Assembly: GCA_039030395.1 (NCBI GenBank)
Contig: JBCCEF010000001.1
Location: 417,315 to 481,314, forward strand
From: Acidobacteriota bacterium
GTDB lineage: Bacteria > Acidobacteriota > Thermoanaerobaculia > Multivoradales > JBCCEF01
DNA: 64,000 nucleotides
Reading direction: 5' to 3'
The translations under genes were made by a program, and so were the position numbers. A model generated the notes under the pieces. The model searched no databases, was not told the DNA's origin, and saw only the letters and a program-made list of their open reading frames with translations. Below are positions 29,982 to 47,446 of the stretch, piece after piece. The stretch's first letter is position 1. Each line of letters starts with the position of its first letter.

Positions 29982-30170
29982 CAGGGGGGCTAGGCCGGGC
30001 CGCGCAGGCGCCCCCTCGTCGCCAAGAAGTGCCATTCTTGGCGACTCACCCCACCCTCGGCGGGCTACGCCCGCCGCCTCGGTCTTCGACCTCCGTTGCG
30101 ATCTGCTGGAAAGAGCAGATCGCCGCTTCTCCGGACCAAGTCGTCAACAGAAATCCGCCCCTCCGCCGCC

Positions 30171-31403
30171 ATGCTCCGCAACCCCTACCTCCGGCTCCTC
30201 CGCAGCAACCGCAATTTCCGGCGGCTGTGGTGTGGCGAGATCGCCTCGCTGCTGGGCGACTGGTTCAACACCATCGCCCAGTACACCTTGGTGCGAGAGC
30301 TGACCGGCTCGACCCTCGCCCTAGGGCTCGTGTTCGTCACCAAGATGCTGCCCTTCGCCTTGATGTCGCCGGTCGCCGGGCTGTTGACGGATCGCTGGAA
30401 TCGCCGGCGGCTGATGATCGGCGCGGATCTCTCGCGGGCGGCGGTAGTGTGCGGCTTCCTGCTGGTCGACGGGCCGGAGGATCTGCCCCTTCTCTTCGCC
30501 CTATCGGCCCTGCAGGTGATGATCGGTGCCTTCTTCATACCGGCTCGCTCGGCGGCCCTCCCCAACATCACCACGCCGAAGGAGCTGCTGACGGCCAATG
30601 CCCTGTCGTCCGCTACCTGGTCGACGCTGTTGGCCCTGGGCGCCGCCCTCGGCGGCTTCGCCACCGACCGCCTGGGGACCGACACGGTGTTCCTGCTCGA
30701 CGCGGCCACCTACCTGATCTCGGCCTTCTTCATCTTCCGCACGGTGATCCCGCAAAAGACCGAAGCGGCGGCCGTCGGCCCGGTGATTCGCACCGCCTTG
30801 AAGGACATCGCCGCCGGCTGGCGGCACATGCGGCATCGGCCGCGCATCGGCCGCATCGCCTTGACCAAGCCCGCCTGGGCGCTGGGCGGCGCCGGCATCG
30901 TTTACTCGCTGGCGCTGGTCGGAGAAGAGCTGATGCCGGCGGCCCCGGCGGTGGGCATCGGCCTGCTCTACGCCGCCCGCGGGCTGGGCACCGGCGCCGG
31001 CCCCATCGCCGCCCGGCGCTTCCTGCCCAACGAGCGCACCTGGCCGACGGCGATCGCCGTCGGCATCATCGCCTCAGGACTGGTCTACACCGCCTTCGCC
31101 TACCTGCCCTGGACCCTGTGGATCCTGATTCCGGTGTTTCTCGCCCACACCCCCTCCGGCGCCAACTGGGTGCTCTCGACGGTCCTCCTCCAGCAGCGCA
31201 CCGAAGACCGCTTTCGCGGCCGCGTTTTCGCCACCGAGTGGTTGATCCTCACCCTGGTCGACACCGTCGTCATCCTCCTCGCCTCTCTCCTCCTCGAAGC
31301 CGATCTCGTCACCCTCCGCCAGGCGATCCTCGCTTTCGCCGCGGTGCAGATCGTCACCGGCATCGCCTGGTGGTTGGTCATCGCGCCGAAGGAACGGGCC
31401 TGA
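30171..31403 (+). CDS. MFS transporter
   Basis: 12 predicted TM helices. MFS motifs are present (LRSNRNFRRLWCGEIASLLGDW; LTDRWNRRRLM). The track ORF was trimmed to the ATG at 30171. Confidence 0.7.
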   Translation: MLRNPYLRLLRSNRNFRRLWCGEIASLLGDWFNTIAQYTLVRELTGSTLALGLVFVTKMLPFALMSPVAGLLTDRWNRRRLMIGADLSRAAVVCGFLLVDGPEDLPLLFALSALQVMIGAFFIPARSAALPNITTPKELLTANALSSATWSTLLALGAALGGFATDRLGTDTVFLLDAATYLISAFFIFRTVIPQKTEAAAVGPVIRTALKDIAAGWRHMRHRPRIGRIALTKPAWALGGAGIVYSLALVGEELMPAAPAVGIGLLYAARGLGTGAGPIAARRFLPNERTWPTAIAVGIIASGLVYTAFAYLPWTLWILIPVFLAHTPSGANWVLSTVLLQQRTEDRFRGRVFATEWLILTLVDTVVILLASLLLEADLVTLRQAILAFAAVQIVTGIAWWLVIAPKERA

Positions 31404-31543: not shown

Positions 31544-32755
31544 ATGGAAGGAAAGCCGAGAACCGCTGTCGAGTTCATCGCGTCTCGCGCCGAGAAAGAG
31601 CCCGACGACGACGCTCTGGTCGAAATCCTCGACTCGAATCCCTGGGTCTTTCCGGCGATTCAGAATCTCCATCCAGACTGGGATGTCCGAGATTCGACCA
31701 AGAACCTCCAGCAAGCGCTTCAGAAGAAGAGTTCGAGCGCCAGAATCCGCGCTCTGGTCGTTTCCCTCTGCGAAGCCGGCCGAAAGTTCGAGCTCCGGCG
31801 CGCCCTCGAGCTACAGAACGGTCGCTCCCCTTCGCCGGTCTACAGCGCCGTCGCCACGTTCTCGATGATCGTCGGCGTCATCGGTGTGCTGATGACCCTC
31901 ACTGCGGACGTGGCGGTCGGCACAGACGCCGCGCCACAGGAGTTCTTCGGCACCCGCACTCTCTGGTTGTCCATCGCCCACGTCGGCGTCATCATCATTC
32001 TGCTGGCCTCGACCTCGAAGATTTCTCTGGTGAAGAAAGAGGATCGAGACGCCGAGTACATCGGCACCGTCGCCCAGCTCACCAAGGGCTGGCTGGGAGT
32101 GTGGCTGTTGTGGCTCGCGCTCTACGGCTGGTTCACCGTTGCCGTCCTCTGCAAGTTCCGGGGATTCGAGATCCCAGGTGTTCTCTTCTGGTCCGTGGCC
32201 GACCTGATCAACATCGCCACCGGCACAGCTTTCTTCTATCTCTTTCTCGCCCTCCAGTTCCCCAGCGTCGACACGGACCGCGACAAGCACCGCAGCCGGC
32301 GGTACTACCACCACCGGTCCGTTGTACTGCTGGTTAGCCTGTTCGTCGCCGGGTTCTCGATCCTCGGTCGGATCTGGACCGCCAGCGTCGATTCGGAGCC
32401 GACCATCGTCGGCATCTTGGGGCTCTTCATCCAGTCGTCCTTCGTCGCCGTCAGCATGTGCTACTTCTTCGGTCGTCTGGACAGCCATTACCTGGGAACC
32501 AACCTGCTCACGCTGGCGCCGCTTTACGCTTATGCCGTCATCCAAATGAGCTGGGGCAGCATCGGAGAAGATCCTCAGCTCTCGGCGCCGCTCTTGATCT
32601 TCGCGCTCGTCTTCAAGGTTTATCTGTACGGCCTCGCCTTTTTCTGGATCTGGAAGGGAAAGCTGCGTAAATACCTAGAGTTGGCCGCCGAACACTACCC
32701 TCAGATTCAGGTCGAGCGCCGGGACCTCGAACCGGCCTCCCCCTCGCGACCCTAG
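31544..32755 (+). CDS. Hypothetical polytopic membrane protein with an N-terminal soluble domain
   Basis: 403 aa. A ~95-aa charged N-terminal domain is followed by about 8 hydrophobic helices. The GC content is lower (~57%) than the surrounding sequence. No recognisable domain. Confidence 0.4.
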   Translation: MEGKPRTAVEFIASRAEKEPDDDALVEILDSNPWVFPAIQNLHPDWDVRDSTKNLQQALQKKSSSARIRALVVSLCEAGRKFELRRALELQNGRSPSPVYSAVATFSMIVGVIGVLMTLTADVAVGTDAAPQEFFGTRTLWLSIAHVGVIIILLASTSKISLVKKEDRDAEYIGTVAQLTKGWLGVWLLWLALYGWFTVAVLCKFRGFEIPGVLFWSVADLINIATGTAFFYLFLALQFPSVDTDRDKHRSRRYYHHRSVVLLVSLFVAGFSILGRIWTASVDSEPTIVGILGLFIQSSFVAVSMCYFFGRLDSHYLGTNLLTLAPLYAYAVIQMSWGSIGEDPQLSAPLLIFALVFKVYLYGLAFFWIWKGKLRKYLELAAEHYPQIQVERRDLEPASPSRP

Positions 32756-32896
32756 CCGCTATCAGCCTTCCTGGGCATCCCTCCGAGAGGAGGAGTCGGC
32801 GACTTCTCGGACTTCTTGCTTGACAGGATTCGCTCTCTTCTCAATAATTGACCGGCCGGCCAGTTCATAACTTCTGCCGGAGAAGGAGAGCCCTCG

Positions 32897-33502
32897 ATGT
32901 CCGCCGCCAAACGCGATCCCGAAGCCACCCGCGCCGCCATTCTCGACGCCGCCGAGGCGGTGTTCGTGGAGAAGGGCTTCGCCGACACCGCCACCTCCGC
33001 CATCGCCCGCCAGGCGGGGGTGACCAAGAGCTTGATCCACCACCACTTCGGCTCGAAGGAGGCGCTGTGGGAGGAGATCAAGACCCGCCGCTTCTCGCGC
33101 TACGCCGAAGAGCAGCACGCGATGATCGAGAGATCGAGCCCGAGCGCCGAACTGCTGCGGCAGTCCCTGGAGTTCTACTTTCGCTTTCTCCAAGACAACC
33201 CGGAGCTGGTGCGGCTGATGTTGTGGCGGCACCTGGAGCGCGATCCGACCGCCGAGACCTTCGAGCAAATGACCCAGGCCGGCGTGCGCACCATCGAGGC
33301 GTCGCAGGAGGCGGGCGAGCTGCGCTCGGATGTCTCCGCTCGTTCCATCCTGTTTCTCTTCCTCGCCGCCTCGGAGCACTGGTTCCAGGCCCGAGACCCT
33401 TACCTGACCGCTCTGTGCTGCTCGCCGGCGGACGGCTCCGAAGACGAGCGCTACCTGCAAGACATGCTCAAGATTTTCTTCGAAGGAGTGCTGCCGCGAT
33501 GA
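32897..33502 (+). CDS. TetR/AcrR family transcriptional regulator
   Basis: HTH TRAAILDAAEAVFVEKGFADTATSAIARQAGVTKSLIHHHF. It is the first gene of an overlapping three-gene efflux operon. Confidence 0.85.
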   Translation: MSAAKRDPEATRAAILDAAEAVFVEKGFADTATSAIARQAGVTKSLIHHHFGSKEALWEEIKTRRFSRYAEEQHAMIERSSPSAELLRQSLEFYFRFLQDNPELVRLMLWRHLERDPTAETFEQMTQAGVRTIEASQEAGELRSDVSARSILFLFLAASEHWFQARDPYLTALCCSPADGSEDERYLQDMLKIFFEGVLPR

Positions 33503-34599
33503 AGCCTAGACTTTGGATTCCCTTCGCCATCCTGGTGGCCGCCGTGGCCGCCGCTATCTTTCTCGCCGACCCGGCCGCCACTCCGGCCCTGAGCGAGCGG
33601 CCCGGTAGCGGAGCCGCCCGAGTGCTCACCGCGCCGGTGGAGACCCTCTCGGCCGCCCGGGCGGTGCATCTGCCCGGCACCACCCGCGCCGGCCGGCGGG
33701 CTCACCTGGCCTTCGAATCGAGCGGCCGGATCGTCGAACGCCGGGTCGATCTGGGCGATGCGGTGCGCCGCGGCCAGGTGGTGGCCCGCCTCGACGCGAG
33801 TCCCTTCGAACTGGCCGTCAGCGCCGCCGCCGCCCGGCTGGTGGAGGCGGAAGAAAGGCTGACGCAGCTCCAGCGCGACCGCCAGCGGAGCGAGGAATTG
33901 GCCGCCGACGGCGCCGCGACGCGCGAGGAGGTCGAGCAGGTCACCGCCGGAGCGGCGGCCCTAACGGCGGCCCGCGACGCCGCCAAGACGGCCCTCGAAA
34001 ACGCCCGGCGGGCGCAGCGCGAGACGGTTCTCACCGCCCCCTTCGATGGCGTGGTGAGCGCCGTCAAAGCGTCCGCTGGCGAGCAGATCGGCGCCGGCTC
34101 GCCGGTGGTGACCCTCGACGGTGAGGGCGCCGTAGAGCTGCGCGCCGAGGCGCCGGAGACGCTGCTGCCCTACTTTGCCGCCGGCCAGGAGGTGACCGTG
34201 GAGCTGCCCCTCCAGGGGCGCCGGGTAGTCGGCGAAGTGCTGTCCGTCGGCACCGCTGCCGGCAGCTCGGGACTGTTCCCGGTGCGGGTGGACCTGCCGC
34301 CGGGCCCCGGGGTGCTGCCCGGAGTGACCGCCGAACTGGTGGTGGAAGCGGGCGACCCGCAAGCCCTTTCGGTACCGCTGGCGTCGGTGATCGACCCCAG
34401 CGGCGGCCGCCCGGCCCTCTTCCGGGTGCGCAACGAGGTCGCCGAGCGGGTCACCCTGGAAGTGGGAGGCCTAGTGGGCGACCGAGTGATCGTCGCATCC
34501 GCGAAACCGCCGCTCGCCCTCGCCGACCGGGTGGTGGTCGGCGGCCAGGGATCCCTGCGGGACGGTGACGGCGTGCGCCCTAGCGAGGTCGCGCCGTGA
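33499..34599 (+). CDS. RND efflux membrane-fusion (periplasmic adaptor) protein
   Basis: Start MKPRLWIPFAILVAAVAAAIFL, overlapping the TetR stop (ATGA). Coiled-coil and lipoyl hairpin region (VARLDASPFELAVSAAAARLVEAEERLTQLQRD...). Beta-barrel segments are present. The track ORF 32848.. is a frame extension. Confidence 0.75.
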   Translation: MKPRLWIPFAILVAAVAAAIFLADPAATPALSERPGSGAARVLTAPVETLSAARAVHLPGTTRAGRRAHLAFESSGRIVERRVDLGDAVRRGQVVARLDASPFELAVSAAAARLVEAEERLTQLQRDRQRSEELAADGAATREEVEQVTAGAAALTAARDAAKTALENARRAQRETVLTAPFDGVVSAVKASAGEQIGAGSPVVTLDGEGAVELRAEAPETLLPYFAAGQEVTVELPLQGRRVVGEVLSVGTAAGSSGLFPVRVDLPPGPGVLPGVTAELVVEAGDPQALSVPLASVIDPSGGRPALFRVRNEVAERVTLEVGGLVGDRVIVASAKPPLALADRVVVGGQGSLRDGDGVRPSEVAP

Positions 34600-37500
34600 G
34601 CTTCCTGCTCGATCTCCTCGGCCGGCGACGGATGATTCTCACTTCCGTCGCGCTGCTGGCGCTCGCCGGCGGCCTCGCCTGGGGCACCATGCCGCGGCAA
34701 GAGGATCCGGAGTTTCTCTCCTACTGGGGACAGATCATCGTGCCTTTCCCCGGGGCCGACGCGCGCACCGTCGAACGGCTGGTGGTGGAGCCCCTGGAGG
34801 AGCATTTGGCGGAGGTGAACGACCTCTACCTGATCGAGTCCTTCGCCCGCGCCGAAATCGCCGTCTTCGAGCTGGAGCTGCGGCCGAACGTCAAGGACGT
34901 CGACGAAGCCTGGGACGACACCCGGGAAGTGATCGCCGAAGCGCGGCGAGACTTTCCCGCCGGCGTCTTGGAGCCGACCTTCAAGGACGACACGACGGAC
35001 CAGGAGTCGGTGGTGGTGGCGATCACCGGCAGCTCTGATCGCTGGGCCCTCGCCCGCGCCGCCGAGCGGGTGAAGGATTCCCTTCTAGGACTGCCTTCGG
35101 TCTCCCGGGTGGAGATCGTGGGCGACCCGGAAGAGCAGGTGACGGTGGAGCTGGACGATGCCGCCGCCGCACGCCTCGGCCTGGCTCCGGGGTACCTCGC
35201 CCGGCAGCTCCAGGCGCGCAACGGCATCCTCGCCGGCGGCACCCTCAAGGTGGGCGACCAGCAGGTCACTCTGCGACCTCACACGGATTTCCGCGATCTC
35301 GACGAGATCGCCGCCACCCCCATTCTTCTGGTCTCCGGCGCGGCCATTCCCCTGTCCGAGGTCGCCACGGTGCGTTACGGCGCCAAGGAACCCACCCCCA
35401 ACCGCATGCGCTTCAACGGTGAAACCGCCGTCGGTCTCGGCGTGGTGCCGCGCAAGGGGATCAACGTGGTGAAATTCGGTGAGGCGGTGCGCGAGCGACT
35501 GGCGGGGATCCAAGCGGACATCGCTCCGCTGGAGCTGCACGAGGCGATCTTCCAGCCGGATCGAGTGGCCTGGCGCATTTCCGATCTCGGCCGGTCGCTG
35601 CTCCTATCGATGGTGATCGTCGCCTGTTTCCTGATCGGCGCCATGGGCGCCCGGCTCGGCGCGGTGGTAACGGTGATCGTGCCGCTGGTGGTGTTCTCGT
35701 CCCTCGCTCTCTATGCGCTGCTGGGCGGCCAGCTCCACCAGATCTCCATCGCCGCCCTGGTGATCGCCCTCGGCATGCTGGTGGACAACGCCATCGTGGT
35801 GGCCGAGAACGTCCAGGATCGCCTCGACCGCGGCGAGCCGGCGGCGGTGGCGGCACCCTCCGCCATCCGCGCCCTCGCCGTTCCCCTGGCCGGCGCCACC
35901 GGCACCACCCTGGCGGCCTTCGTGCCGATGCTCGCCGCCGCCGGGCCGACGGCGGAGTTCACCCGCGCCATCCCCCAGTTGGTGATGCTCACCCTCGCCA
36001 TGAGCTACTTGTACGCGGTGTTCGTGACCCCGATCCTTTCGCAGATGGTGCTCCGCCGGCGCGAGACCCAGAAGCCTCCCTGGCTGCAGTCGATCAGCCA
36101 CCGCTTCGGCGCCCTGGCCGTCGGCCGGCCGCTACTGGTGCTGGCCTGTGCCGCGCTGCTCGTCGGGCTGTCCTTCTATGCCTCGAGCTTCGTGCGGCGG
36201 GGGTTCTTCCCGCAGTCGGACCGCAACCAGTTGATGGTCGACCTGAAGCTGCCGGAAGGCGCCCACCTCGAAGCGACCAACGAGATCACCGCTCGCTATG
36301 AGCGCGCCCTGTTGGCGCGGCCGGAGGTGGCCGGCGTAACCACCCTGGTGGGGCGCTCGAGCCCGCACTTCTACTACAACCTGCCGCGCATTCCCCTGGC
36401 CCCGAACTTCGCTCAGCTCGCCGTCGAGACGCGCAATCTGGACGACGTGGAGACAGTCCTCACCTGGAGCCGGGAGTTCGTTGCCCAGGAGATGCCGGCG
36501 GTGGAGATCACCGCCCGGCGGCTGGAGCAGGGGCCGCCGGTGAAGGCGCCCATCGAGGTACGCCTGTTCGGTGAAGACCCAGAGCACCTGGAGGAGGCCG
36601 TCGGCCGGGTGGTCGCCGAGCTGCGGGGCATTCCGCAGGCCGTTGACGTACGCCACGATCTCTCCCTCGGCTCGCCGACGGTGGACTTCCGAATCGACGA
36701 CGCAGCCGCCGCCCGCCGGGGGATCAGCCGCGCCGACGTCGCCCACGCCCTGTTCGGGCGCACCCGCGGCCTACCCGCCGGCGAGTACCGGGCCGGCGAG
36801 GATCCGGTGCCAATCGTGGTGCGTTCGTCGGCCGGCGAGGACCTGCCGGTGGACTCCCTCGGCGGACTGCAGATCGCCACCGCCGACGGCGACACCGTAC
36901 CGCTAGAGCAGGTCGCCACCGTCGGTCTGGAGTGGCGGCCGGCGGCGATCTACCACCGCAACGGCCGGCGGGTCGTCTCGGTCACCTCGCAGCTCGCCTT
37001 CGGTGCCTCCTACAATCAGGTGCTCGCCGAGCTGCAGCCGGCTCTCGCCGAAATGACCCTGCCGCCGGGGGTCGAATGGGCACTCGGCGGCGAAAGCGAA
37101 GGCTCCGGCGACGCCAACGCCGCCCTGGTGCGGATGGTGCCCCTCGGCCTGCTGCTGCTGATGGGCATCCTGCTGGCGGAGTTCAACTCCTTCCGGCGCA
37201 TCGCCATCGTGATGGTGACGGTGCCGCTGGCGGCGGCCGGCGTGGTGCCTGGGCTGCTGATCGGTGGCCAACCCTTCGGCTTCACCTCGACCCTCGGGCT
37301 GATCGCCCTGGTGGGCATCGTGGTCAACAATGCCATCGTACTGCTCGACGTGGTGGAGAAACGCCGCCGCGCCGGGGCGCCCATCGCAGAGGCCCTCGCC
37401 TCCGCCGTCGAGCGGCGCACCCGGCCCATCCTGCTGACCACCGGCACTACCATCGCCGGTTTGCTGCCGCTGGCCTTTTCGTCCACCTCTCTGTGGCCGC

Positions 37501-39026
37501 CGATGGCCTGGTCGATGATCTCCGGCCTGCTCGCGTCGACGCTCCTCACCCTGTTGGTGGTGCCGGCCCTCTACACCCTGCTGTTCTCGCGCTGGAACGA
37601 TCTGCCCTTCCGGCGCGCCGCCACCGCGACCACCCTGGTGCTCGCGCTGTCGGCGGTCCTCGCCGCTCCGGCCCTGCGGGCGGAGGAGACCGACGACGAT
37701 CCGCGGACGGACCCGACCGTTGTCGCCTCGCCGATCGAAGTCACCCTAGCCGAGGCGATGGACCAAGCCTTCTCCCGGCCGGGCGCCGAGGCGGCCATGG
37801 AGCAGGCCATCGCCGCCGGCTGGAACGCCGAAGCGGAGCGCCGCGAAGGATGGCTGCCGCTCCTTGACGTCTTCGCCTCGGCGGTCACCCGCAGCCAGGC
37901 CCTGGCCTTCGACACGCCGATCGGCGAGCTGACCTTTGTCGAGCGCAGCAACGAAACGGCAGAGGTGGTGGTGAGCCAGCCGCTGCTCGACCTGCGCCGG
38001 CGCCGCTTTCTGGCGCCGGCCGCCCGCACCGACGCCGAGTCTCTCGGTTTCGACGCTCTGCGCATCGGCCATCAGGCGGTGGCCCAGGCGGGACTGGTGT
38101 TTGTCGATCTCCAAGGAGTGGCCGCCCGCCTCGAGACCACGGCAACGTTCATCGACAGCCTGGAGAACCGCCTGGCAGAAGCGAACGCCCGTTTCGACCG
38201 GGGACGAGCCCTCGAGAGCGATGTACTCAAGGTCCGCCTCGCCCTCGACAGCGCCCTTCAGGATCGCGTCGCCCTAGAGGCACAGCAAGAGGTGCTGCGC
38301 TTTGAATTGGGCCGCGCCATCGCTTACCAGGGCGGCGTCGCAGCGGCGTGGGATGGCGTGCCGGAACTGCCGTCACCGGCCTCCTTCGAAGTCCTCTTCG
38401 AAGCGGGGCTGGCCCACCGCCCGGACTACCGCACCTACACGGAGCGGGAGCGAGGCGCCACCCTGCGCCGCGAGGCGGTACGGGCGGAGCTGCTCCCCCG
38501 TTTGAACGGCTACGGTCGGTGGAGTTGGGACAGCGGCAGTCCCTTCGATCCAAAGGATCAGGTCGAAGGCGGCCTCCAGATCCGCTGGACCCCCTTCGAC
38601 CGCGCCACCCGCGGCCCGCGGCGGGTGGCCGCCGAGAGCCGCCTGGCGTCCATCCAGGCGGAGCGCAGGGAAGCGGAGCGGGTGGTGGAGATCGACATTC
38701 GCCAGGCGCTGGCGGCCATCCGAGTGGCGGACCAGGCCCTCGCCACCGCCATCACCGGGGTCGATCAAGCGGGCGAGACGCTGCGGGTGGAGCGGCGGCG
38801 CCAGGAGGCCGGCCGTTCCACCACCAACGACCTGCTGGAGGCGGAGGCGGCGCTCCGCGATCAGCGGACGAGGGAGGAACTTGCGCGGCTGGACATCGTC
38901 CGCGGCTGGGTGCTGCTGGGACTTGCCGTAGGGGATCCGGAACTGGTGCTGCGGGGAGGGGAACTGCTCCAGGGAGCCCCGAAGAGCCCCCTGGAGATCT
39001 ATCGTGAGCGCTTCGGCGACGGTTAG
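34596..39026 (+). CDS. RND (AcrB-like) efflux permease fused in-frame to a TolC-like outer-membrane factor domain
   Basis: Single 1476-aa ORF, GTG start overlapping the MFP stop. Residues 1 to ~1000 are a 12-TM RND permease ending ...LLVVPALYTLLFSR. A signal-peptide-like linker RRAATATTLVLALSAVLAAPALRA follows. The last ~450 aa are coiled-coil and beta-barrel in an OEP/TolC pattern (two repeats, leucine-rich heptads). Confidence 0.7.
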   Translation: MSFLLDLLGRRRMILTSVALLALAGGLAWGTMPRQEDPEFLSYWGQIIVPFPGADARTVERLVVEPLEEHLAEVNDLYLIESFARAEIAVFELELRPNVKDVDEAWDDTREVIAEARRDFPAGVLEPTFKDDTTDQESVVVAITGSSDRWALARAAERVKDSLLGLPSVSRVEIVGDPEEQVTVELDDAAAARLGLAPGYLARQLQARNGILAGGTLKVGDQQVTLRPHTDFRDLDEIAATPILLVSGAAIPLSEVATVRYGAKEPTPNRMRFNGETAVGLGVVPRKGINVVKFGEAVRERLAGIQADIAPLELHEAIFQPDRVAWRISDLGRSLLLSMVIVACFLIGAMGARLGAVVTVIVPLVVFSSLALYALLGGQLHQISIAALVIALGMLVDNAIVVAENVQDRLDRGEPAAVAAPSAIRALAVPLAGATGTTLAAFVPMLAAAGPTAEFTRAIPQLVMLTLAMSYLYAVFVTPILSQMVLRRRETQKPPWLQSISHRFGALAVGRPLLVLACAALLVGLSFYASSFVRRGFFPQSDRNQLMVDLKLPEGAHLEATNEITARYERALLARPEVAGVTTLVGRSSPHFYYNLPRIPLAPNFAQLAVETRNLDDVETVLTWSREFVAQEMPAVEITARRLEQGPPVKAPIEVRLFGEDPEHLEEAVGRVVAELRGIPQAVDVRHDLSLGSPTVDFRIDDAAAARRGISRADVAHALFGRTRGLPAGEYRAGEDPVPIVVRSSAGEDLPVDSLGGLQIATADGDTVPLEQVATVGLEWRPAAIYHRNGRRVVSVTSQLAFGASYNQVLAELQPALAEMTLPPGVEWALGGESEGSGDANAALVRMVPLGLLLLMGILLAEFNSFRRIAIVMVTVPLAAAGVVPGLLIGGQPFGFTSTLGLIALVGIVVNNAIVLLDVVEKRRRAGAPIAEALASAVERRTRPILLTTGTTIAGLLPLAFSSTSLWPPMAWSMISGLLASTLLTLLVVPALYTLLFSRWNDLPFRRAATATTLVLALSAVLAAPALRAEETDDDPRTDPTVVASPIEVTLAEAMDQAFSRPGAEAAMEQAIAAGWNAEAERREGWLPLLDVFASAVTRSQALAFDTPIGELTFVERSNETAEVVVSQPLLDLRRRRFLAPAARTDAESLGFDALRIGHQAVAQAGLVFVDLQGVAARLETTATFIDSLENRLAEANARFDRGRALESDVLKVRLALDSALQDRVALEAQQEVLRFELGRAIAYQGGVAAAWDGVPELPSPASFEVLFEAGLAHRPDYRTYTERERGATLRREAVRAELLPRLNGYGRWSWDSGSPFDPKDQVEGGLQIRWTPFDRATRGPRRVAAESRLASIQAERREAERVVEIDIRQALAAIRVADQALATAITGVDQAGETLRVERRRQEAGRSTTNDLLEAEAALRDQRTREELARLDIVRGWVLLGLAVGDPELVLRGGELLQGAPKSPLEIYRERFGDG

Positions 39027-39562
39027 CCCGCCGAAATGGTGACCGGCACCTGGGTCTTGACCCAGCGCAGCACCAGTTCGTCGCCTTCGATCACGAAGTC
39101 CATCGCTTCCACGTGGTCGCCGCCGCGCGGCTCGACCTCGAACCGCACCACGTCCTCCGCCTCCGCATAGTCGTAGGCGCCCCACTGCTCCGCCACCTTG
39201 TTGAGGATCACCGTCCAGGAGCCCTCGCCGGGGATGGTGAACAGCGAGTACGTGCCCGCCGCAACGGCCTTGCCGCCGACCTTCGCAGCGGAACCGAAGG
39301 TCACCGTGGTGGCCTCGTCGGCGCCGGTGCGCCACACCTTGCCGTAGGGCACCAGAGCGCCCCAGATCTCGCGATCGCGCACCTGCGGACTGCCGTACTC
39401 CACGGTCACCGCCACGCCGTCGACGGTGCCTTCGACCTTGCCGTTCTTGCTCTTGCGGCTGCTGTCGTCGCCGCGTTCGGCGAAGGCCGGCGCCACCGCC
39501 ACCAGCACCATCAACAGACAGGCGATCAGCGCAAAGGTGCTCTTCGAAAGCTTGAAGTTCAT
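39023..39562 (-). CDS. DUF2911-like secreted protein
   Basis: Signal peptide MNFKLSKSTFALIACLLMVLVAVAPAFA. Motif YGSPQVRDREIWGALVPYGKVWRTGADEATTVTF. Confidence 0.5.
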   Translation of the reverse strand: MNFKLSKSTFALIACLLMVLVAVAPAFAERGDDSSRKSKNGKVEGTVDGVAVTVEYGSPQVRDREIWGALVPYGKVWRTGADEATTVTFGSAAKVGGKAVAAGTYSLFTIPGEGSWTVILNKVAEQWGAYDYAEAEDVVRFEVEPRGGDHVEAMDFVIEGDELVLRWVKTQVPVTISAG

Positions 39563-39754
39563 TTCAGAATCTCCTCCGGGTGTTGTCTCGCTCCCGAGAG
39601 TCGGGATGCGTAGGGTTCTATTGCAATACGTCTCCTACAATCATAGTAGATCCCCCAAACCCTTCCGGATCTACGGTGACTCCCCTACGGAGTCGCCTGG
39701 AGACGACCAGGCGCAAACGCTTGCAATCCTCGGGCCGGGAGCGACAGCCTGCAC

Positions 39755-39816: not shown

Positions 39817-41271
39817 TTAGGCGTCCAGCATGAAGAAGCCCGGATTCAAGATGCCGTCCGGATCGAAGCGCTTCTTCGCCTCTTTGATGGTCCCCCACAA
39901 TTCACTGCCGAAGTGGTTCTCCCACTCCTCGACGGTCTTGAAGCTGATCCAGCCGGAGAGGTACCGCTTGCCGCCGTAGGCGACGGTGAGTTCGTGGAAC
40001 ATCTCGAGCTGGGAGAGGGCCTGGTCGAGGAACTGAGTCGGCACCGCCGGCAGGATGCCGAAGCCCATCAGGTTCTTCGACTCGCTCTCCGGATACATAA
40101 AGAGCGGCACATCGGAGTTGTCGTTGCGCGCCGGCCACAGCAGGATGTGGCCGCCGGGCCCTAGAGCCTGCGGCGGGAAGCCCGAAAGCACCGTCGGAAT
40201 GAGCTCCTTGGCGACGTCCCAGGTGAGGGTGGTCTCCACCCACGGGTGGTGCATTTCCCAGTTGCCGGAGCGGTGCCAGAGATCGAAAATCGGCACCAGG
40301 CGGTTGCAGAACTCGAGCTGCGTGTACTCCTCGTCCCGCAGGTGCTTGTAGTACTTGAGGCCGTCGAGAATCGCCGCGTCGTCCGGATCTTCGCCTTCGT
40401 TGTATTCCACCGTCAGGAACATCGGATACATCCAGTGGGCATAGAGCTGCATGCCCTCACCGAGGGTCAGGCCCTCGCCGATGCGCTGGGTGAAGATGGG
40501 ACACGGCGCGCAGCGTGACTCCAGGGTGTGGAAGCGGTCGTGGTTCTCCGGCTCCATCACGAAGGAGGCATCCTCCATGAAGGTCTCCAGGTCGTCGTAG
40601 AGAAGGTGGTACATGCGCACCTTCTCTTTGCAGCGGCGGAGCATCACCTTGGCGCGGGTGATGATGCCGAACTGGCCGAAGCCGCAGCGCACGGCGTTGA
40701 ACAGATCGGTGTTCTCCTGCCGCGAGCAGACCACGATCTCACCAGTGCCGGTGACCACTTCGAGTTCGATGACGTTGTCCGCCTGGGTGCCGTAGCGATA
40801 GCTCGCCACCCCCAGGCCGGCCACCGAGATGGTGCCCGCCAGGGACACGCCGAGATTGTTGGTCAGCACCCGCGGCACGAGGCCCAAGGGCACCGTCGCC
40901 GCCACCAGTTCGCGCCACACCAGCCCGCCGTCGCAGTCGGCGTAGTTGCCCTCGTGGGAAATCTCATGGATGCGCTGCATGGAGGCGGTGTCGATCACCA
41001 CGCCGCCGTCGGTGGTGGATTGGCCGGTCTGGGTGTGGCCTTGGCCGCGGGCCACCACCACGATGCCGTGGTCGCGGCAGAAGCGCACGATCTCCGCCAC
41101 TTCTTCGGCCGAGGCGCAGCGGGCGACAGCACCGGGCATCTGGCGCACGACGCGGCCGAAATCGGTATCGAATTCGCGCCGCACTTCCTCGTCGAGAAGC
41201 AGGGCATCGCCCAGCTTCTCTTTCAGCTCGAGCAGAGCCTCGGTCTTGTCGATGGGTGAATGAACGGCCAT
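39817..41271 (-). CDS. FAD-linked oxidase (PCMH-type FAD-binding domain; cytokinin-dehydrogenase-like)
   Basis: 484 aa. FAD-binding region VVARGQGHTQTGQSTTDGGVVIDTASM. The C-terminal motif RFDPDGILNPGFFMLD resembles the CKX/FAD-oxidase C-terminus. Confidence 0.65.
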   Translation of the reverse strand: MAVHSPIDKTEALLELKEKLGDALLLDEEVRREFDTDFGRVVRQMPGAVARCASAEEVAEIVRFCRDHGIVVVARGQGHTQTGQSTTDGGVVIDTASMQRIHEISHEGNYADCDGGLVWRELVAATVPLGLVPRVLTNNLGVSLAGTISVAGLGVASYRYGTQADNVIELEVVTGTGEIVVCSRQENTDLFNAVRCGFGQFGIITRAKVMLRRCKEKVRMYHLLYDDLETFMEDASFVMEPENHDRFHTLESRCAPCPIFTQRIGEGLTLGEGMQLYAHWMYPMFLTVEYNEGEDPDDAAILDGLKYYKHLRDEEYTQLEFCNRLVPIFDLWHRSGNWEMHHPWVETTLTWDVAKELIPTVLSGFPPQALGPGGHILLWPARNDNSDVPLFMYPESESKNLMGFGILPAVPTQFLDQALSQLEMFHELTVAYGGKRYLSGWISFKTVEEWENHFGSELWGTIKEAKKRFDPDGILNPGFFMLDA

Positions 41272-43084: not shown

Positions 43085-43127
43085 TCCAACCGAAAAACCC
43101 CGTGAAAATCCACCTGCCGGAGACTTC

Positions 43128-44423
43128 ATGCCCATCGCCCGCGCCTTGATCGTTGTTCTCGTGCTCATCACCACCACCGCGCCGGCCTTCGCGTCGGGCT
43201 TCTACCGTTTTCAACACGGCGGCCGCGCCACCGCTCAGGTGGGCGCCATGACCGCCCGCGCCGACGACCCCTCGGCGGTGTTCTACAACCCTGCCGGCAT
43301 CACCCAGCTCGACGGTTTCCAACTCCTCGGCGGCCTCGACTTCAACAACGCCACGGACGACTATTCGAGCGCGACCTCCGGCATCCAGTCGGCGGATCAC
43401 GTGATCAATTTTCCGCCGGCGATCTATGCCACCTGGACGGACCGCTCGCGCTTTGCCAACCTGTCCTTCGGCCTGGGCATCGACACCGCCTACTGGTACC
43501 GGGTGGATTGGGATCCGGTGTTCTTCGAGCCGCGCTTCCGCAACCGGCTCACCGAGCTGCGCCTGTGGGAGGTCCATCCGGTGGTCGCCTGGAAGGTCAA
43601 CGAAGCGTTCAGCGTCGGCGGTGGAATTCGCTACCAGTTCGGCTCCTTCGACCAAGGGGCCAATACCCGCATCGTGTTCGGCGACGACGAGGAACCGGGC
43701 ACCCTCGATCCCGCCGAGATCACCGCCGACGCCGAGGCGAGCGTGGACGGCCTGGGCTTCGATCTCGCCGCGCACTGGACCTCCAACCTGTGGGGTTGGG
43801 GCGCCGTCTACCGCAGCGCCATCGAACTCGAGGGCGACGACCGCGTGAGCCGAGCCGTGCGCGACCAGCCGTTTTCACCGGACGCTCAAGCCCTTCTCGC
43901 GATCCTCCTCGACGACTTCGGCGGCGAGAGCTTCCGCCAGACCCTCGACCTGCCGGCGGAGCTGCGCGGCGGCGTGTGGTTCGCCCCGTATCCGGAATTG
44001 AAGGTCGAGATCAACGCCTCGTATCAGGCCTGGTCGGATTTCGAACAGCGCTTTGACGCCGAGCTGACCCCGGTCTTGCCCGCCTTCTTCGGAGACCGCG
44101 CCGGCTGGGACGACACGGTGTCGATCCGCCTCGGTGCCGAAGGGCGCCTGACCGATGCCCTCACCCTCACCGGCGGCCTCGCCTACGAGCCTTCGCCGGT
44201 GCCCGAGGACGAGGTGGATCCCGGCTTTCCGCGCGGCGACGCCATGGTCTACGCCCTCGGCCTCTCCTACGAGTTCCCCAAGGTGATCTTCGATCTCGGC
44301 TATTCGATCCACGATCACGACTCGGTGACGGCGAACGGCCAGGAACCGCGCTTCCCCGACACCCGCGGCACCTACTCGGCGGACGACCAGGTGTGGTCCG
44401 CCTCGGCCCGCTGGAAGTTCTAG
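43128..44423 (+). CDS. FadL/TodX-family outer-membrane transporter for hydrophobic compounds
   Basis: Signal peptide MPIARALIVVLVLITTTAPAFA. N-terminal hatch GFYRFQHGGRATAQVGAMTARADDPSAVFYNPAG. Beta-strands throughout and a C-terminal Phe (ARWKF). Confidence 0.65.
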   Translation: MPIARALIVVLVLITTTAPAFASGFYRFQHGGRATAQVGAMTARADDPSAVFYNPAGITQLDGFQLLGGLDFNNATDDYSSATSGIQSADHVINFPPAIYATWTDRSRFANLSFGLGIDTAYWYRVDWDPVFFEPRFRNRLTELRLWEVHPVVAWKVNEAFSVGGGIRYQFGSFDQGANTRIVFGDDEEPGTLDPAEITADAEASVDGLGFDLAAHWTSNLWGWGAVYRSAIELEGDDRVSRAVRDQPFSPDAQALLAILLDDFGGESFRQTLDLPAELRGGVWFAPYPELKVEINASYQAWSDFEQRFDAELTPVLPAFFGDRAGWDDTVSIRLGAEGRLTDALTLTGGLAYEPSPVPEDEVDPGFPRGDAMVYALGLSYEFPKVIFDLGYSIHDHDSVTANGQEPRFPDTRGTYSADDQVWSASARWKF

Positions 44424-44654: not shown

Positions 44655-46070
44655 ATGCTTGTTCGCTCCTTCACCAAGGTGCGCCGGTCGGCCCTTACTG
44701 CCTTTGCCTTGTTGGTGGGGACCGTCAGCGCGGCCGCCGCCCAGAGCCCTCCCACCCTGCCGCCGGAGGACTGCGTGCGGATGCTGCGGGAGGCCCGCTT
44801 CGAGACGGATCCCGCAGGCGAGCTAGCCCACCTGCGGGCGGCGCGCGAAGCGTTTCCGGACGAGATAGCGGTACTCGCCGCCCTGCTGGGCTACCACCAG
44901 CGTCACGCCCTGCCGGCAGCCGAGCACGCCGCGCTGGTAAAGGCCCTCGGTCACCGGGTGGAGAACCGGGACCTCCCTCTGCCGGTAGCCATGCTCGCCC
45001 AGGTGGCTCAAGACCGCCAGGTCGCCAAAGGGACCGCCGAACTCCTCGCCGAGCGCCTGGCATCCCGGATCGCCCGAACCGACGCGGCGCCGGAACCCGA
45101 GGCCCTCGGTCTCCTCGCCCGCTACCAAGCCCGCCTGGACGACCTCGAAGGCACCTTCGAGTCGCTTTCGCAACAGTGGGAACTGACCGGCGATCCGAAG
45201 GTGCGCTGGCAGTTGGCGACCGCCGCCGAGCGCCTGGAGCGCTGGTCCGTCGTTCTCGACCTGCTCGCAGAGATTCCGGACCGCACCGTCGCCCTCGAAC
45301 GGCGGTATCTGAAGGCTCTCGGCAAAGCCGGCTCCGCCGACCGTTTCCTCGCCGCCATCGACGCCCTGAGCGACCCAGCACCGGCCTCGGAGCCGCCGGC
45401 CGACCAGGCGGCGGAGCAGCCGATCAACCTCGATGAACTCTTCGGAATCGAACGTAGCGTTCCCGCCATCCTTCAACAGGCCGCCTGGGATCTGTGGGAT
45501 CGCGGCCTGGAAGCGGAGTCCGAGAGGGTCTTTCGCCGGCTCCTCTCCCTGCGGCCGAAATCCGAGGTCGCCAACGCCGCCATCCTCCACCTGTTCGCCA
45601 GCGACCAAGAGATCGTCGCCCGCACAGAGGCGGCCGAGGATCGGTGGGCGAAGGTGACCGACGCGCAATCCCTCTTCGACGAAGGCACCCGGCGCATGAC
45701 GACCGGCGATGCCGCCGGCGCCGTCGACCTGCTGCGGCGGGCCGCTCCCGGCCTGCCGGACCTGGAAGCCGCCTGGTACAACCTGGGAATGGCGAGCTTT
45801 CGCCTGGAGCAATGGGATGAGGCGGCGGGAGCCTTCGGCCGCGCCGCCCAGCTCAATCCACGGCGCGCCGAAGCCCACTACTTCCTGGGCCTCGCCCTCC
45901 ATCGCCTGGCTCGCTGCGGCGAGGCGGTCACCTCGCTGGAAAACGCCATCGGCCTCGCCCCCTCGCGCACCACGGCGCACTACTACCTCGCCGAGTGCTA
46001 CGCCACCCTCGGCGACGCGGCGGCGGCCAAGGCCCACCGCGACGCCTACGAAGCCTCGAAGGAACCCTGA
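44655..46070 (+). CDS. Secreted TPR-repeat protein
   Basis: Signal peptide. The C-terminal half has three canonical TPRs (AWYNLGMASFRLEQWDEAAGAFGRAAQLNP; AHYFLGLALHRLARCGEAVTSLENAIGLAP; AHYYLAECYATLGD). Confidence 0.65.
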   Translation: MLVRSFTKVRRSALTAFALLVGTVSAAAAQSPPTLPPEDCVRMLREARFETDPAGELAHLRAAREAFPDEIAVLAALLGYHQRHALPAAEHAALVKALGHRVENRDLPLPVAMLAQVAQDRQVAKGTAELLAERLASRIARTDAAPEPEALGLLARYQARLDDLEGTFESLSQQWELTGDPKVRWQLATAAERLERWSVVLDLLAEIPDRTVALERRYLKALGKAGSADRFLAAIDALSDPAPASEPPADQAAEQPINLDELFGIERSVPAILQQAAWDLWDRGLEAESERVFRRLLSLRPKSEVANAAILHLFASDQEIVARTEAAEDRWAKVTDAQSLFDEGTRRMTTGDAAGAVDLLRRAAPGLPDLEAAWYNLGMASFRLEQWDEAAGAFGRAAQLNPRRAEAHYFLGLALHRLARCGEAVTSLENAIGLAPSRTTAHYYLAECYATLGDAAAAKAHRDAYEASKEP

Positions 46071-47446
46071 TGAGCCGCAAACATCCCCTCGATCCCTCGA
46101 TCCTCGCCCGCAAGATGGCGATCATCCTGGCGCTCGGCCTCTCGGCCGGAGCCTTATGGAGCCCCGCTCCGATGGCGGCCCAGGACGCTCCGGGAGTGAA
46201 CCTCTCCCCGATGCTCATCGAGAGTTCGTCCCTCTACGCCCCGATGGAGGCATCCGGCACGGACATCCGCCCGGAGCTCAAGGTGCGGGTGCAGGTGAAT
46301 CCTCGCGGCAAGGTGTCCGAGGTGGAGATCTTGGGGATTCAGCCCACGACGGCCTACGACCACCTCTTCGTCGACCACACCCGCTCGCAGCTCTCCCGCT
46401 GGCGCTACGCTCCGGCGCTGGAGAACGGTGAACCCGTGGCAGCAACTCTCGAGTGGACCGTCTCCTACAAGAGCTTCGACGAAACCTCGCCGAGCCCGCC
46501 GCAGGTCCTGGGCGGAACCCACCTTTCGCCCTGGGCCACTTCCGAAGCGCAGTCGATCGCCGAGCTGGATCGCAGCGAACGCCTCGCCTTCCTGCGGCGC
46601 CACGCCGAGTACGCAGAAACCCTGCTCGATCCCCGTTACCGCTCGCGTTTCGATACTCCCCGGTTCACCGTGGTCACCGACGTGCCCGACGAGAAACTGG
46701 CCCGTCAGCTCGCCACCGAGATGGAATCGGTATTCAACGCCCTCGACGCCTTTGTCGGCGATCGCATTTCCCCGCGACCGCAGGACGGCAAGATCGCCGT
46801 CTTCGTGTTCGCCAACAAGGACCGCTCCAAGAAAGTTCGGCGGCAGCTACGGAGTGGGGATTCCATCGGCGGTACCTACTCCAAGTCGGGCCTGATGGTG
46901 CTGGACACGGACGTGCTGGATCCGGACTTCTTCCAGCGCATCTTGCTCTTCCAAACCACCCGCGCTTACCTCGACCGTCACCTCGAACGGCGAGGGGTTG
47001 TTCTGCCGGCGTGGATCGAACAGGGCTTCACCTGGTACATCAGTAACGCCCGGATCAAAGAGGGAGCGATCGTGCCGGGCAAGATCCAACCGAGCCGCTG
47101 GGCCCTGAGCCCCTTCGGCGGAGCCTACCGGGCACGGTCGCTGGCGGAGAGCGATCTGGATCGGGTGAAAGGGGCCGTGCGCGACGGCAGGGGGATCTCG
47201 CCCGCGGACCTACTGGACATCGACTCCCAGACCAACGCCGAGCGGCCGCGCCTCTACTTTCCCACCGCCTGGCTGTTCAGCCACTACCTGTGCCACGGCG
47301 AGAAAGACTGGTTCCACAAGGAGTTCCCGCGCTTCCTGCTCTACGCCGTTGAAGGCTACCCGGCGGACGTCGCCTTCGAGCAGGTCTACGGCCGGACTCC
47401 GGATCAGGTCGCCGAAGAGTTCGAGCGGTACGTGAAGCGGCTCTGA
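46070..47446 (+). CDS. Secreted hypothetical protein with an N-terminal TonB-C-like domain
   Basis: Start overlaps the TPR gene stop (TGATG). Signal peptide. Residues ~60-130 fit the TonB C-terminal pattern (KVRVQVNPRGKVSEVEILGI...SRWRYAPALENGEPVAATLEWTVSY). The C-terminal 300 aa were not recognised. Confidence 0.45.
   Translation: MSRKHPLDPSILARKMAIILALGLSAGALWSPAPMAAQDAPGVNLSPMLIESSSLYAPMEASGTDIRPELKVRVQVNPRGKVSEVEILGIQPTTAYDHLFVDHTRSQLSRWRYAPALENGEPVAATLEWTVSYKSFDETSPSPPQVLGGTHLSPWATSEAQSIAELDRSERLAFLRRHAEYAETLLDPRYRSRFDTPRFTVVTDVPDEKLARQLATEMESVFNALDAFVGDRISPRPQDGKIAVFVFANKDRSKKVRRQLRSGDSIGGTYSKSGLMVLDTDVLDPDFFQRILLFQTTRAYLDRHLERRGVVLPAWIEQGFTWYISNARIKEGAIVPGKIQPSRWALSPFGGAYRARSLAESDLDRVKGAVRDGRGISPADLLDIDSQTNAERPRLYFPTAWLFSHYLCHGEKDWFHKEFPRFLLYAVEGYPADVAFEQVYGRTPDQVAEEFERYVKRL

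Follow-up and report, generated by a model that had tools for sequence, protein, structure and literature searches.

An RND efflux permease and a TolC-type outer-membrane factor encoded in a single reading frame, joined by a signal-peptide-like linker

Results

One reading frame encodes an RND permease and a TolC-type channel

The stretch of DNA analyzed here, a 64,000-nucleotide window on contig JBCCEF010000001.1 of an Acidobacteriota bacterium (positions 417,315 to 481,314), carries an efflux cassette in which an inner-membrane drug-efflux pump of the resistance-nodulation-division (RND) type and an outer-membrane exit channel are a single encoded protein. The open reading frame (ORF) lies at 34596..39026 of the window on the forward strand, begins with GTG and continues in one frame for 1476 amino acids plus the stop, with an RND permease at aa 1-999, a linker of 48 aa and a TolC-type outer-membrane factor (OMF) at aa 1048-1476. 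A first-pass annotation, made from the sequence alone, had noticed that the RND frame runs on past its twelfth transmembrane (TM) helix, through a signal-peptide-like segment and into a two-repeat TolC/OEP domain. Pfam matches to ACR_tran and OEP within the single ORF, with E-values far beyond chance, and a scan of the linker confirmed this anatomy, and the landmarks given for it were right to within ~10 nt: LLVVPALYTLLFSR, the end of TM12, lies at nt 37551-37592 (aa 986-999), and RRAATATTLVLALSAVLAAPALRA, in the linker, at nt 37611-37682 (aa 1006-1029).

The fused gene is the last of a tightly packed cassette. A TetR-family regulator of 201 aa (32897..33502, forward strand; TetR_N E 6.5e-18 and TetR_C_21 E 2.6e-12 in Pfam) is followed by a periplasmic adaptor, or membrane fusion protein (MFP), of 366 aa (33499..34599, forward strand; HlyD_3 E 2e-17 and HlyD_D23 E 4.5e-13). 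The 4-nt overlaps already described among these genes were seen again: the MFP gene shares ATGA with tetR (33499-33502) and GTGA with the RND start (34596-34599), and it adjoins the RND gene in the same orientation, as in tripartite RND efflux operons. All four loci compared (L001-L004) had the same order of a TetR_C_21-type tetR, MFP and RND::OMF genes, with the 4-nt MFP/RND overlap. Upstream of tetR lies a sigma-70-like promoter, TTGACA-17 nt-AATAAT (32820..32848, forward strand), which agrees with the consensus at 11 of 12 positions. Its -10 hexamer is overlapped by a 20-nt palindrome, AATTGACCGGCC/GGCCGGCCAGTT (32846..32865), an inverted pair with 83% complementarity and a candidate TetR operator, which is probably the site through which the regulator of the cassette controls its own expression.

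The RND permease module (34596..37592, forward strand) is HAE-1-like and belongs with MexK and TriC, with 12 predicted TM helices. ACR_tran (PF00873) matched aa 12-996 with E 5e-147, over profile positions 10-1020 of 1021, and the nearest solved structures, each matched over aa 8-998, were MexK (E 4e-134) and 6vej (E 2e-124); the module aligns over its full length with the MexK and TriC structures. Peaks of hydropathy fell at the expected places of TM1, TM2-6, TM7 and TM8-12, with the TM12 maximum at aa 978-996. Since the best of the named NCBIfam subfamilies, NF033617, scored 392 bits and thus did not reach its curated cut-off of 1250, the module is, by profile score, a divergent subfamily and no equivalog of a named pump. 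The TM4 motif LVDNAIVV (aa ~398-402, window ~35790; alignment columns 417-418) and the TM10 motif VVNNAIVL (aa ~911-915, window ~37330; alignment columns 955-956) are nearly invariant in the family and, judged by eye without a formal AcrB alignment, differ from the D407-D408/K940 relay of AcrB.

The OMF module (37737..39023, forward strand) was recognized by Pfam, TIGR01844, AlphaFold2 (AF2) and Foldseek alike. It contains two tandem OEP (PF02321) stretches (E 7e-36), its fold starts at EVTLAEAM (aa 1048, nt 37737), and the NCBIfam TolC model TIGR01844 covers aa 1050-1446. Scores stayed below the curated cut-offs (67.8-71.7 versus 225 bits for TIGR01844, and 18.3 versus 210 for the NodT model TIGR01845), and by this measure the module is a distant member of the OMF family. 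An AF2 model of aa 960-1476, with a mean predicted local distance difference test score (pLDDT) of 88.9, placed TM12 first, then a lower-confidence helix (aa 1006-1022), a disordered stretch (aa 1023-1046) and the TolC elements, in which short helices, a strand pair, a 69-residue helix and a 35-residue helix follow one another and the whole set is repeated once. When the OMF model was compared with the PDB by Foldseek, TolC (1ek9), ST50, OprN, CmeC, CusC and OprM were all returned at probability 1.0, with target TM-scores of 0.71-0.81 for the first five of these (0.79 for TolC 1ek9). A TolC protomer has two long helices, four strands that contribute to the barrel, an equatorial domain and short helices in a stack, and the model conforms to this fold. 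The module is therefore predicted by the model to fold as a complete TolC. Taken together, both modules, RND and OMF, are complete.

The fusion is conserved and widespread

An assembly or frameshift artefact, which the first-pass annotation had offered as one explanation, was considered together with an artefactually lost stop or a pseudogene in this metagenome-assembled genome (MAG); the exact protein is known from one contig only (P0001, 100% identical, deposited from an Acidobacteriota MAG). GC content at third codon positions (GC3), calculated in 60-codon blocks, was 0.73-0.97 across the junction and followed the same frame throughout, so that there was no sign of a frame change at that point. 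An orthologue with 70% identity to the window protein (P0002) shows the same architecture in a different assembly (locus L001), with the same neighbours, including a convergent DUF2911 gene.

When the full-length protein was used as the query, the best 120 homologue clusters (90% identity level) were all fusions of PF00873 and PF02321, giving at least 120 fused clusters at that level. These proteins are 1408-1684 aa long and 46-70% identical to the query, mostly with 96-99% query coverage; four with long linker inserts aligned over only 66-68% in one BLAST segment. We also compared aa 801-1476 with all 50%-identity cluster representatives and sorted the best 150 matches by RND and OMF profiles. 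About 94 of these 150 were junction-spanning fusions, down to 27% identity, of which 64 were full length (61 new and 3 among the 120 above) and 30 were cut by contig ends; the other representatives included 22 unfused RND proteins of at least 950 aa (mostly ~1000 aa) and 9 OMF-only proteins. The fused gene was found on contigs of 3.4, 5.2, 9.3 and 9.4 Mb, in 13 GTDB species genomes (Holophagae, Thermoanaerobaculia, Myxococcota, Arenicella, Salinisphaera, 'Eisenbacteria' and others) and in three cultured isolates, namely Leptospira langatensis (WP_135646827.1), L. semungkisensis and Salinisphaera japonica (WP_123658943.1), for a taxonomic range that covers Acidobacteriota, Myxococcota, Desulfobacterota, Gammaproteobacteria and Leptospira.

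With the fusion present in more than 200 diverged clusters, on long-read megabase contigs and in isolate genomes, with both modules complete and conserved, and with orthologous operons that were fused rather than divided into two separate genes, the probability that we are dealing with an artefact is negligible, and we rejected this explanation. The fusion is real, ancient, conserved and widespread. In databases, the fused genes are labelled 'RND permease', 'TolC family protein' or, by the Joint Genome Institute (JGI), 'AcrB/outer membrane protein TolC'; labels that name only the permease or only the TolC family protein mean that OMF counts in these phyla are underestimated.

The linker has the form of a signal peptide

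The linker begins with a short, positively charged n-region that is predicted to be cytoplasmic (aa 1000-1007, WNDLPFRR; 37593..37616, forward strand). It is followed by an h-region (aa 1008-1027, AATATTLVLALSAVLAAPAL; 37617..37676, forward strand) with a hydropathy peak of 1.87 at aa 1009-1027 (19-residue Kyte-Doolittle mean), which is predicted to be either a 13th TM helix or the core of a signal peptide. A signal peptidase I (SPase I) site is predicted at 37668..37688 (forward strand), either after A1026 (APA before LRA) or after A1029 (LRA before EE), and an acidic, proline-rich spacer (aa 1030-1047, EETDDDPRTDPTVVASPI; 37683..37736, forward strand) leads to the OMF fold. The AF2 model gave this spacer a pLDDT of ~53-57, with no secondary structure at aa 1023-1046. 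RR, AATATTLVLALSAVLAAPAL and APA or LRA thus succeed one another as in a signal peptide. Since RND permeases end in the cytoplasm after TM12, as the topology of AcrB illustrates, an n-h-c segment at this point also has the orientation of a signal peptide.

Across the 120 homologues, the linker is the least conserved part of the protein, and there is hardly any similarity between the linkers of the window protein and of its orthologue with 70% identity; spacer length differs as well. The form of the segment is nonetheless retained in these very different linkers. All 120 have Lys or Arg in the n-region (net positive in 113) and a hydrophobic core, the uncharged stretch is 13-31 residues long (median 20), and a rule-based -3/-1 scan, by which all SPase I sites were called, found small residues at these positions in 118 of 120. 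Acidic or polar residues come after the site, and then the conserved OMF start, L-T-L-x-E-A-M. Low-GC fused members have textbook sites that end in ..PLSAQ before T, ..PQASA before RE, ..SSSFA before QI and ..NPLEA before KN. A lipoprotein box with Cys, as in the NodT/OprM subgroup, was absent from the window linker, which has no Cys; neither a conserved Cys nor a conserved lipobox was found in the 120 linkers, with any Cys in 14 and a lipobox-like motif in only one. A lipoprotein route for the OMF was ruled out on this count, and the module is, to judge from its sequence, TolC-like and no lipoprotein.

The tether, by which we mean the stretch that separates the hydrophobic core from the start of the OMF fold, has a median length of 12 residues (interquartile range 10-21) in the homologues and is 24 residues in the window protein; it is at most 25 residues in 100 of 120. 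In P0054, P0112 and P0099, inserts that follow the predicted cleavage site and precede the OMF fold bring the linkers to ~90-240 residues; Pro, Gly and Gln abound in these inserts, and repeats occur (..PHPPDQQGEG.VSPYRSAGGNE.LAS..). Cleavage, if it takes place, would leave them as N-terminal extensions of the mature channel.

Split relatives carry a signal peptide where the linker lies

In six split loci (L015, L018, L039, L044, L048 and L049), the ATG of the OMF gene overlaps the stop codon of the RND gene as ATGA, and several of them have a GGAG-type Shine-Dalgarno (SD) sequence inside the RND tail. The OMFs of the split relatives have an ordinary N-terminal signal peptide, with LTLEEA following close behind its end, as in MKKLTLLFLALAAPLLA before LTLEEAI, and the stand-alone OMF P0265 reads MRRTLILLALLTPLAARA followed by EELDLEAAM. 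Because split and stand-alone OMFs carry a signal peptide at this place, the linker corresponds by position to the signal peptide of an OMF without its Met. A 1-nt indel at the ATGA overlap would be enough to make the fusion. An ancestral separate OMF gene whose upstream stop was lost, another of the origins that the first-pass annotation had suggested, is supported by these ATGA-overlapping relatives and by the signal peptide at the linker position.

In a neighbour-joining (NJ) tree of RND domains, most fused proteins fell in one large clade, within which unfused or split lineages (the Marinobacter, Halomonas and Marinicella groups and Nannocystales L016 and L018) were nested, while the fused L028 and L038 were placed in distant RND clades. 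The tree is unbootstrapped and several of its unfused leaves may be truncated by contig ends (e.g. L034); we used it only for the separateness of L028 and L038 and for the presence of split or unfused lineages among fused ones. Because L028 and L038 fall in distant clades, the tree suggests at least three fusion events, with later fissions or losses, and the fusion probably arose more than once. The linkers of L028 and L038, both independent fusions, have the same n-h-c form.

In Nannocystales L016 (5850-7322) and L018 (6156-7655), RND and OMF are two overlapping genes. Compared with the OMF part of the fused P0179, the separate OMF of these loci shows 30% identity; its Cys- and Gly-rich insert of ~100 residues also occurs in the fused P0169, P0179 and P0242.

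Proposed cleavage of the linker and its alternatives

We consider it likely that the ORF encodes a polyprotein precursor of two parts of a tripartite pump, from which SPase I frees the OMF while a 13th helix stays on the pump. As a control, we compared the linker with TM1 and TM7 of the same proteins, which are N-in/C-out helices before large periplasmic domains. A strict site (Ala at -1; Ala, Val, Ser or Thr at -3; a polar stretch after) was present in 88 of 120 linkers, compared with 19 of 120 for TM1 and 32 of 120 for TM7, and the median apolar run was 16 residues in the linker and 20 in both TM1 and TM7. The strict-site enrichment is supporting evidence for cleavage and no proof of it.

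Several observations weigh against this interpretation. Under a loose -3/-1 rule, sites were called in 114 of 120 linkers, 64 of 120 TM1 helices and 109 of 120 TM7 helices, so that only the strict rule separates the linker from TM7, and the loose rule was dropped. The scan is rule-based and the linkers are rich in Ala, and because the 120 sequences are related, Fisher tests on these counts overstate their independence. In a few homologues the tether is 45 to more than 200 residues long, which might allow it to cross the periplasm without cleavage. Finally, the window protein has Leu, a less favoured residue, at -3 of the site that directly precedes the acidic spacer.

This last point, together with the disordered and accessible spacer of the AF2 model, would fit release of the OMF by a protease other than SPase I or at a site within the acidic spacer. 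However, many linkers are nearly devoid of spacer, with 5-10 residues before the OMF fold, and across linkers of very different sequence it is only the n-h-c form with small residues at -3 and -1 that is conserved. We regard this kind of release as very unlikely.

The linker could also remain uncleaved, as a permanent 13th TM anchor from which a tethered TolC-like domain works as part of a single-chain trans-envelope machine. The h-region is hydrophobic enough for a TM helix (1.87) and is modelled as a helix by AF2, and 6 of 120 homologues have a tether of at least 45 residues. Against this, the N-terminus of TolC lies in the equatorial domain, about half-way up a helical barrel of 100 Å as estimated from published structures; with the tip of the barrel ~130 Å above the inner membrane, this N-terminus is estimated to be well over 100 Å from that membrane. 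Since a tether of 12-24 residues extends to ~40-85 Å at most, it appears too short for a TolC in the outer membrane, which favours cleavage. Strict AXA-type sites are, moreover, commoner in the linker than in TM1 and TM7, the signal-anchor-like helices of these proteins, and its apolar run is shorter than theirs. In split and stand-alone relatives, the corresponding segment is shaped like an N-terminal signal peptide that can be cleaved. An uncleaved anchor thus seems unlikely.

Alternatively, the OMF might mostly be made separately by translation that initiates inside the long ORF, in which case the fusion would be incidental. About 1 in 8 linkers does have a Met in the n-region (MGKR.. in L002, MSRR.. 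in P0097). A DNA scan of 17 fused loci for internal initiation signals, a check proposed with the first-pass annotation, found neither a conserved in-frame ATG, GTG or TTG nor a conserved SD sequence in the linker, and the L007 linker lacks any start codon. In the window linker, the only such codon is a GTG inside the h-region without an SD sequence, and starting there would lose the charged n-region. A second promoter-like site was not found in 32600..39700, including the region before the OMF part. Split relatives, in contrast, keep a GGAG-type SD sequence and ATG and so give an example of the signal in use. Separate synthesis of the OMF is, on these grounds, highly improbable.

Neighbouring genes

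On the 3' side, the fused ORF overlaps by 4 nt a convergent DUF2911 gene (39023-39562, reverse strand; E 2e-47), a neighbour that is also present beside the 70%-identical orthologue in L001 and missing from more distant loci. Beyond it, a FAD-linked oxidase (39817-41271, reverse strand) has a binding domain of the cytokinin-dehydrogenase type (PF09265, E 1.2e-15), which is not a usual annotation in an Acidobacteriota genome. On the 5' side, an MFS_3 transporter gene (30096-31403) is separated from tetR by an ORF of 403 aa with several hydrophobic segments and no Pfam match (31544-32755, forward strand). The window also encodes a FadL/TodX-type outer-membrane transporter (43125-44423, forward strand; E 8.5e-42) and a protein with a TonB C-terminal domain (46067-47446, forward strand). 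The presence of these two genes indicates a host with an outer membrane, i.e. a diderm, which fits the Acidobacteriota label of the identical protein.

Discussion

Post-translational cleavage, which the first-pass annotation had raised as one possibility, is the best-supported account of how a pump and a channel that belong in different membranes could share one ORF, given the signal-peptide form of the linker, its enrichment in strict AXA-type sites, the short tether and the absence of an internal start. We infer the cleavage itself, the enzyme, the exact site, the topology of insertion and the benefit, and the following sequence of events is proposed on that basis. The RND permease would be made first and inserted co-translationally in the inner membrane, with its C-terminus after TM12 in the cytoplasm. 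The next ~30 residues would act as the OMF's own Sec signal peptide minus the initiator Met: the charged n-region would be kept in the cytoplasm, the h-region would insert N-in/C-out as a 13th helix, and the small-x-small c-region would emerge outside, so that the OMF part of ~430 residues is threaded into the periplasm. SPase I would then cut behind APA (aa 1026) or LRA (aa 1029) and release a TolC-like protein, which would travel to the outer membrane by the normal route of chaperones and the β-barrel assembly machinery (BAM) and trimerize there, while the signal peptide would stay on the pump as an extra C-terminal helix. Pump, channel and the adaptor encoded just upstream would assemble as in AcrAB-TolC. 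The fusion itself probably arose from an operon in which the OMF start overlapped the RND stop (ATGA), where a 1-nt indel could bring the two frames together. Its likely benefit would be a fixed 1:1 output of pump and channel, in keeping with the 3:3 ratio in which they occur in the complex, with a dedicated channel and one TetR-controlled promoter for all.

A more far-reaching idea, which we put forward as a possibility and hold to be doubtful, is that a large and old bacterial lineage builds its trans-envelope machine by way of a polyprotein, with one ribosome feeding pump and then channel through the same translocon and with a 13th helix that has a function. If so, this helix may, for example, be a built-in accessory helix or a device that pairs co-made channel and pump trimers.

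Textbook tripartite pumps are made of three separate proteins, and how the amounts of pump and channel are matched, and how the two pair, is debated. A conserved pump-channel precursor would show that 1:1 co-production has been selected in many lineages, and it would be a rare bacterial case of an internal signal peptide through which the parts of a polyprotein reach two different membranes. A 13th helix on RND pumps is a prediction of this scheme. The route of an OMF from the Sec translocon to the outer membrane and to its partner could also be followed in this system, which is tractable because there are cultured Leptospira and Salinisphaera with the fusion. If the more far-reaching idea above is true, the polyprotein route is an undescribed way to assemble envelope complexes in cis, with recurring fusions and fissions. 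A literature search whose range left out most subscription journals and the notes in TCDB and InterPro returned no published description of a natural RND-OMF fusion, and none turned up when the texts of a 2021 Chem Rev review, a Myxococcus copper-operon paper and the TXSScan preprint were searched. The architecture is catalogued in databases and, as far as we have seen, has not been studied.

Among known systems, MexJK-OprM/OpmH and TriABC-OpmH of Pseudomonas aeruginosa are the nearest on the pump side, with MexK and TriC as the closest solved relatives of the window RND module. Like the window cassette, they are tripartite pumps with the adaptor gene upstream and a TetR-type regulator. The OMF of MexJK and TriABC is a separate protein encoded elsewhere in the genome, whereas in the window it forms the C-terminal 430 residues of the RND ORF. 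AcrAB-TolC of Escherichia coli has the same three parts, and the window OMF module has the TolC fold. Pre-TolC, moreover, is laid out as a signal peptide, AXA, one further residue and L.L..A, which is the same layout as in the window segment. TolC, however, comes from an independent gene and serves many pumps, while the window encodes one dedicated channel per pump polypeptide; the window signal peptide is also internal and, unlike that of TolC, would stay on the pump. Split RND-OMF operons share the succession of RND and then OMF with the fused form, in an order of the mexAB-oprM type. They consist of two ORFs in different frames joined at ATGA, whereas stop, start and SD sequence are all gone from the fused form.

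Two further precedents concern the joining itself. SecDF of Thermus thermophilus is, according to one report (PMC8277102, section 5.7.6.3), a natural single-chain fusion of two RND-superfamily subunits that are separate elsewhere. It differs from the window protein in that both halves are inner-membrane proteins of one fold that stay joined, with no change of membrane and no signal peptide.

The closest functional precedent known to us is FbcH, the cytochrome b-c1 polyprotein of Bradyrhizobium japonicum, which is reportedly processed into two subunits. Its ORF, like that of the window protein, starts with a polytopic inner-membrane protein and continues through an internal signal peptide into an exported partner from the same complex; the families are unrelated, however, and the FbcH products stay at the inner membrane, whereas the window OMF must reach the outer membrane. 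Set against all of these systems, the parts of the window cassette are ordinary, namely a MexK/TriC-like RND permease, an HlyD-type adaptor and a TolC-like, non-lipoprotein OMF, and what is unusual is that pump and channel form one covalent precursor that contains a signal peptide in its interior.

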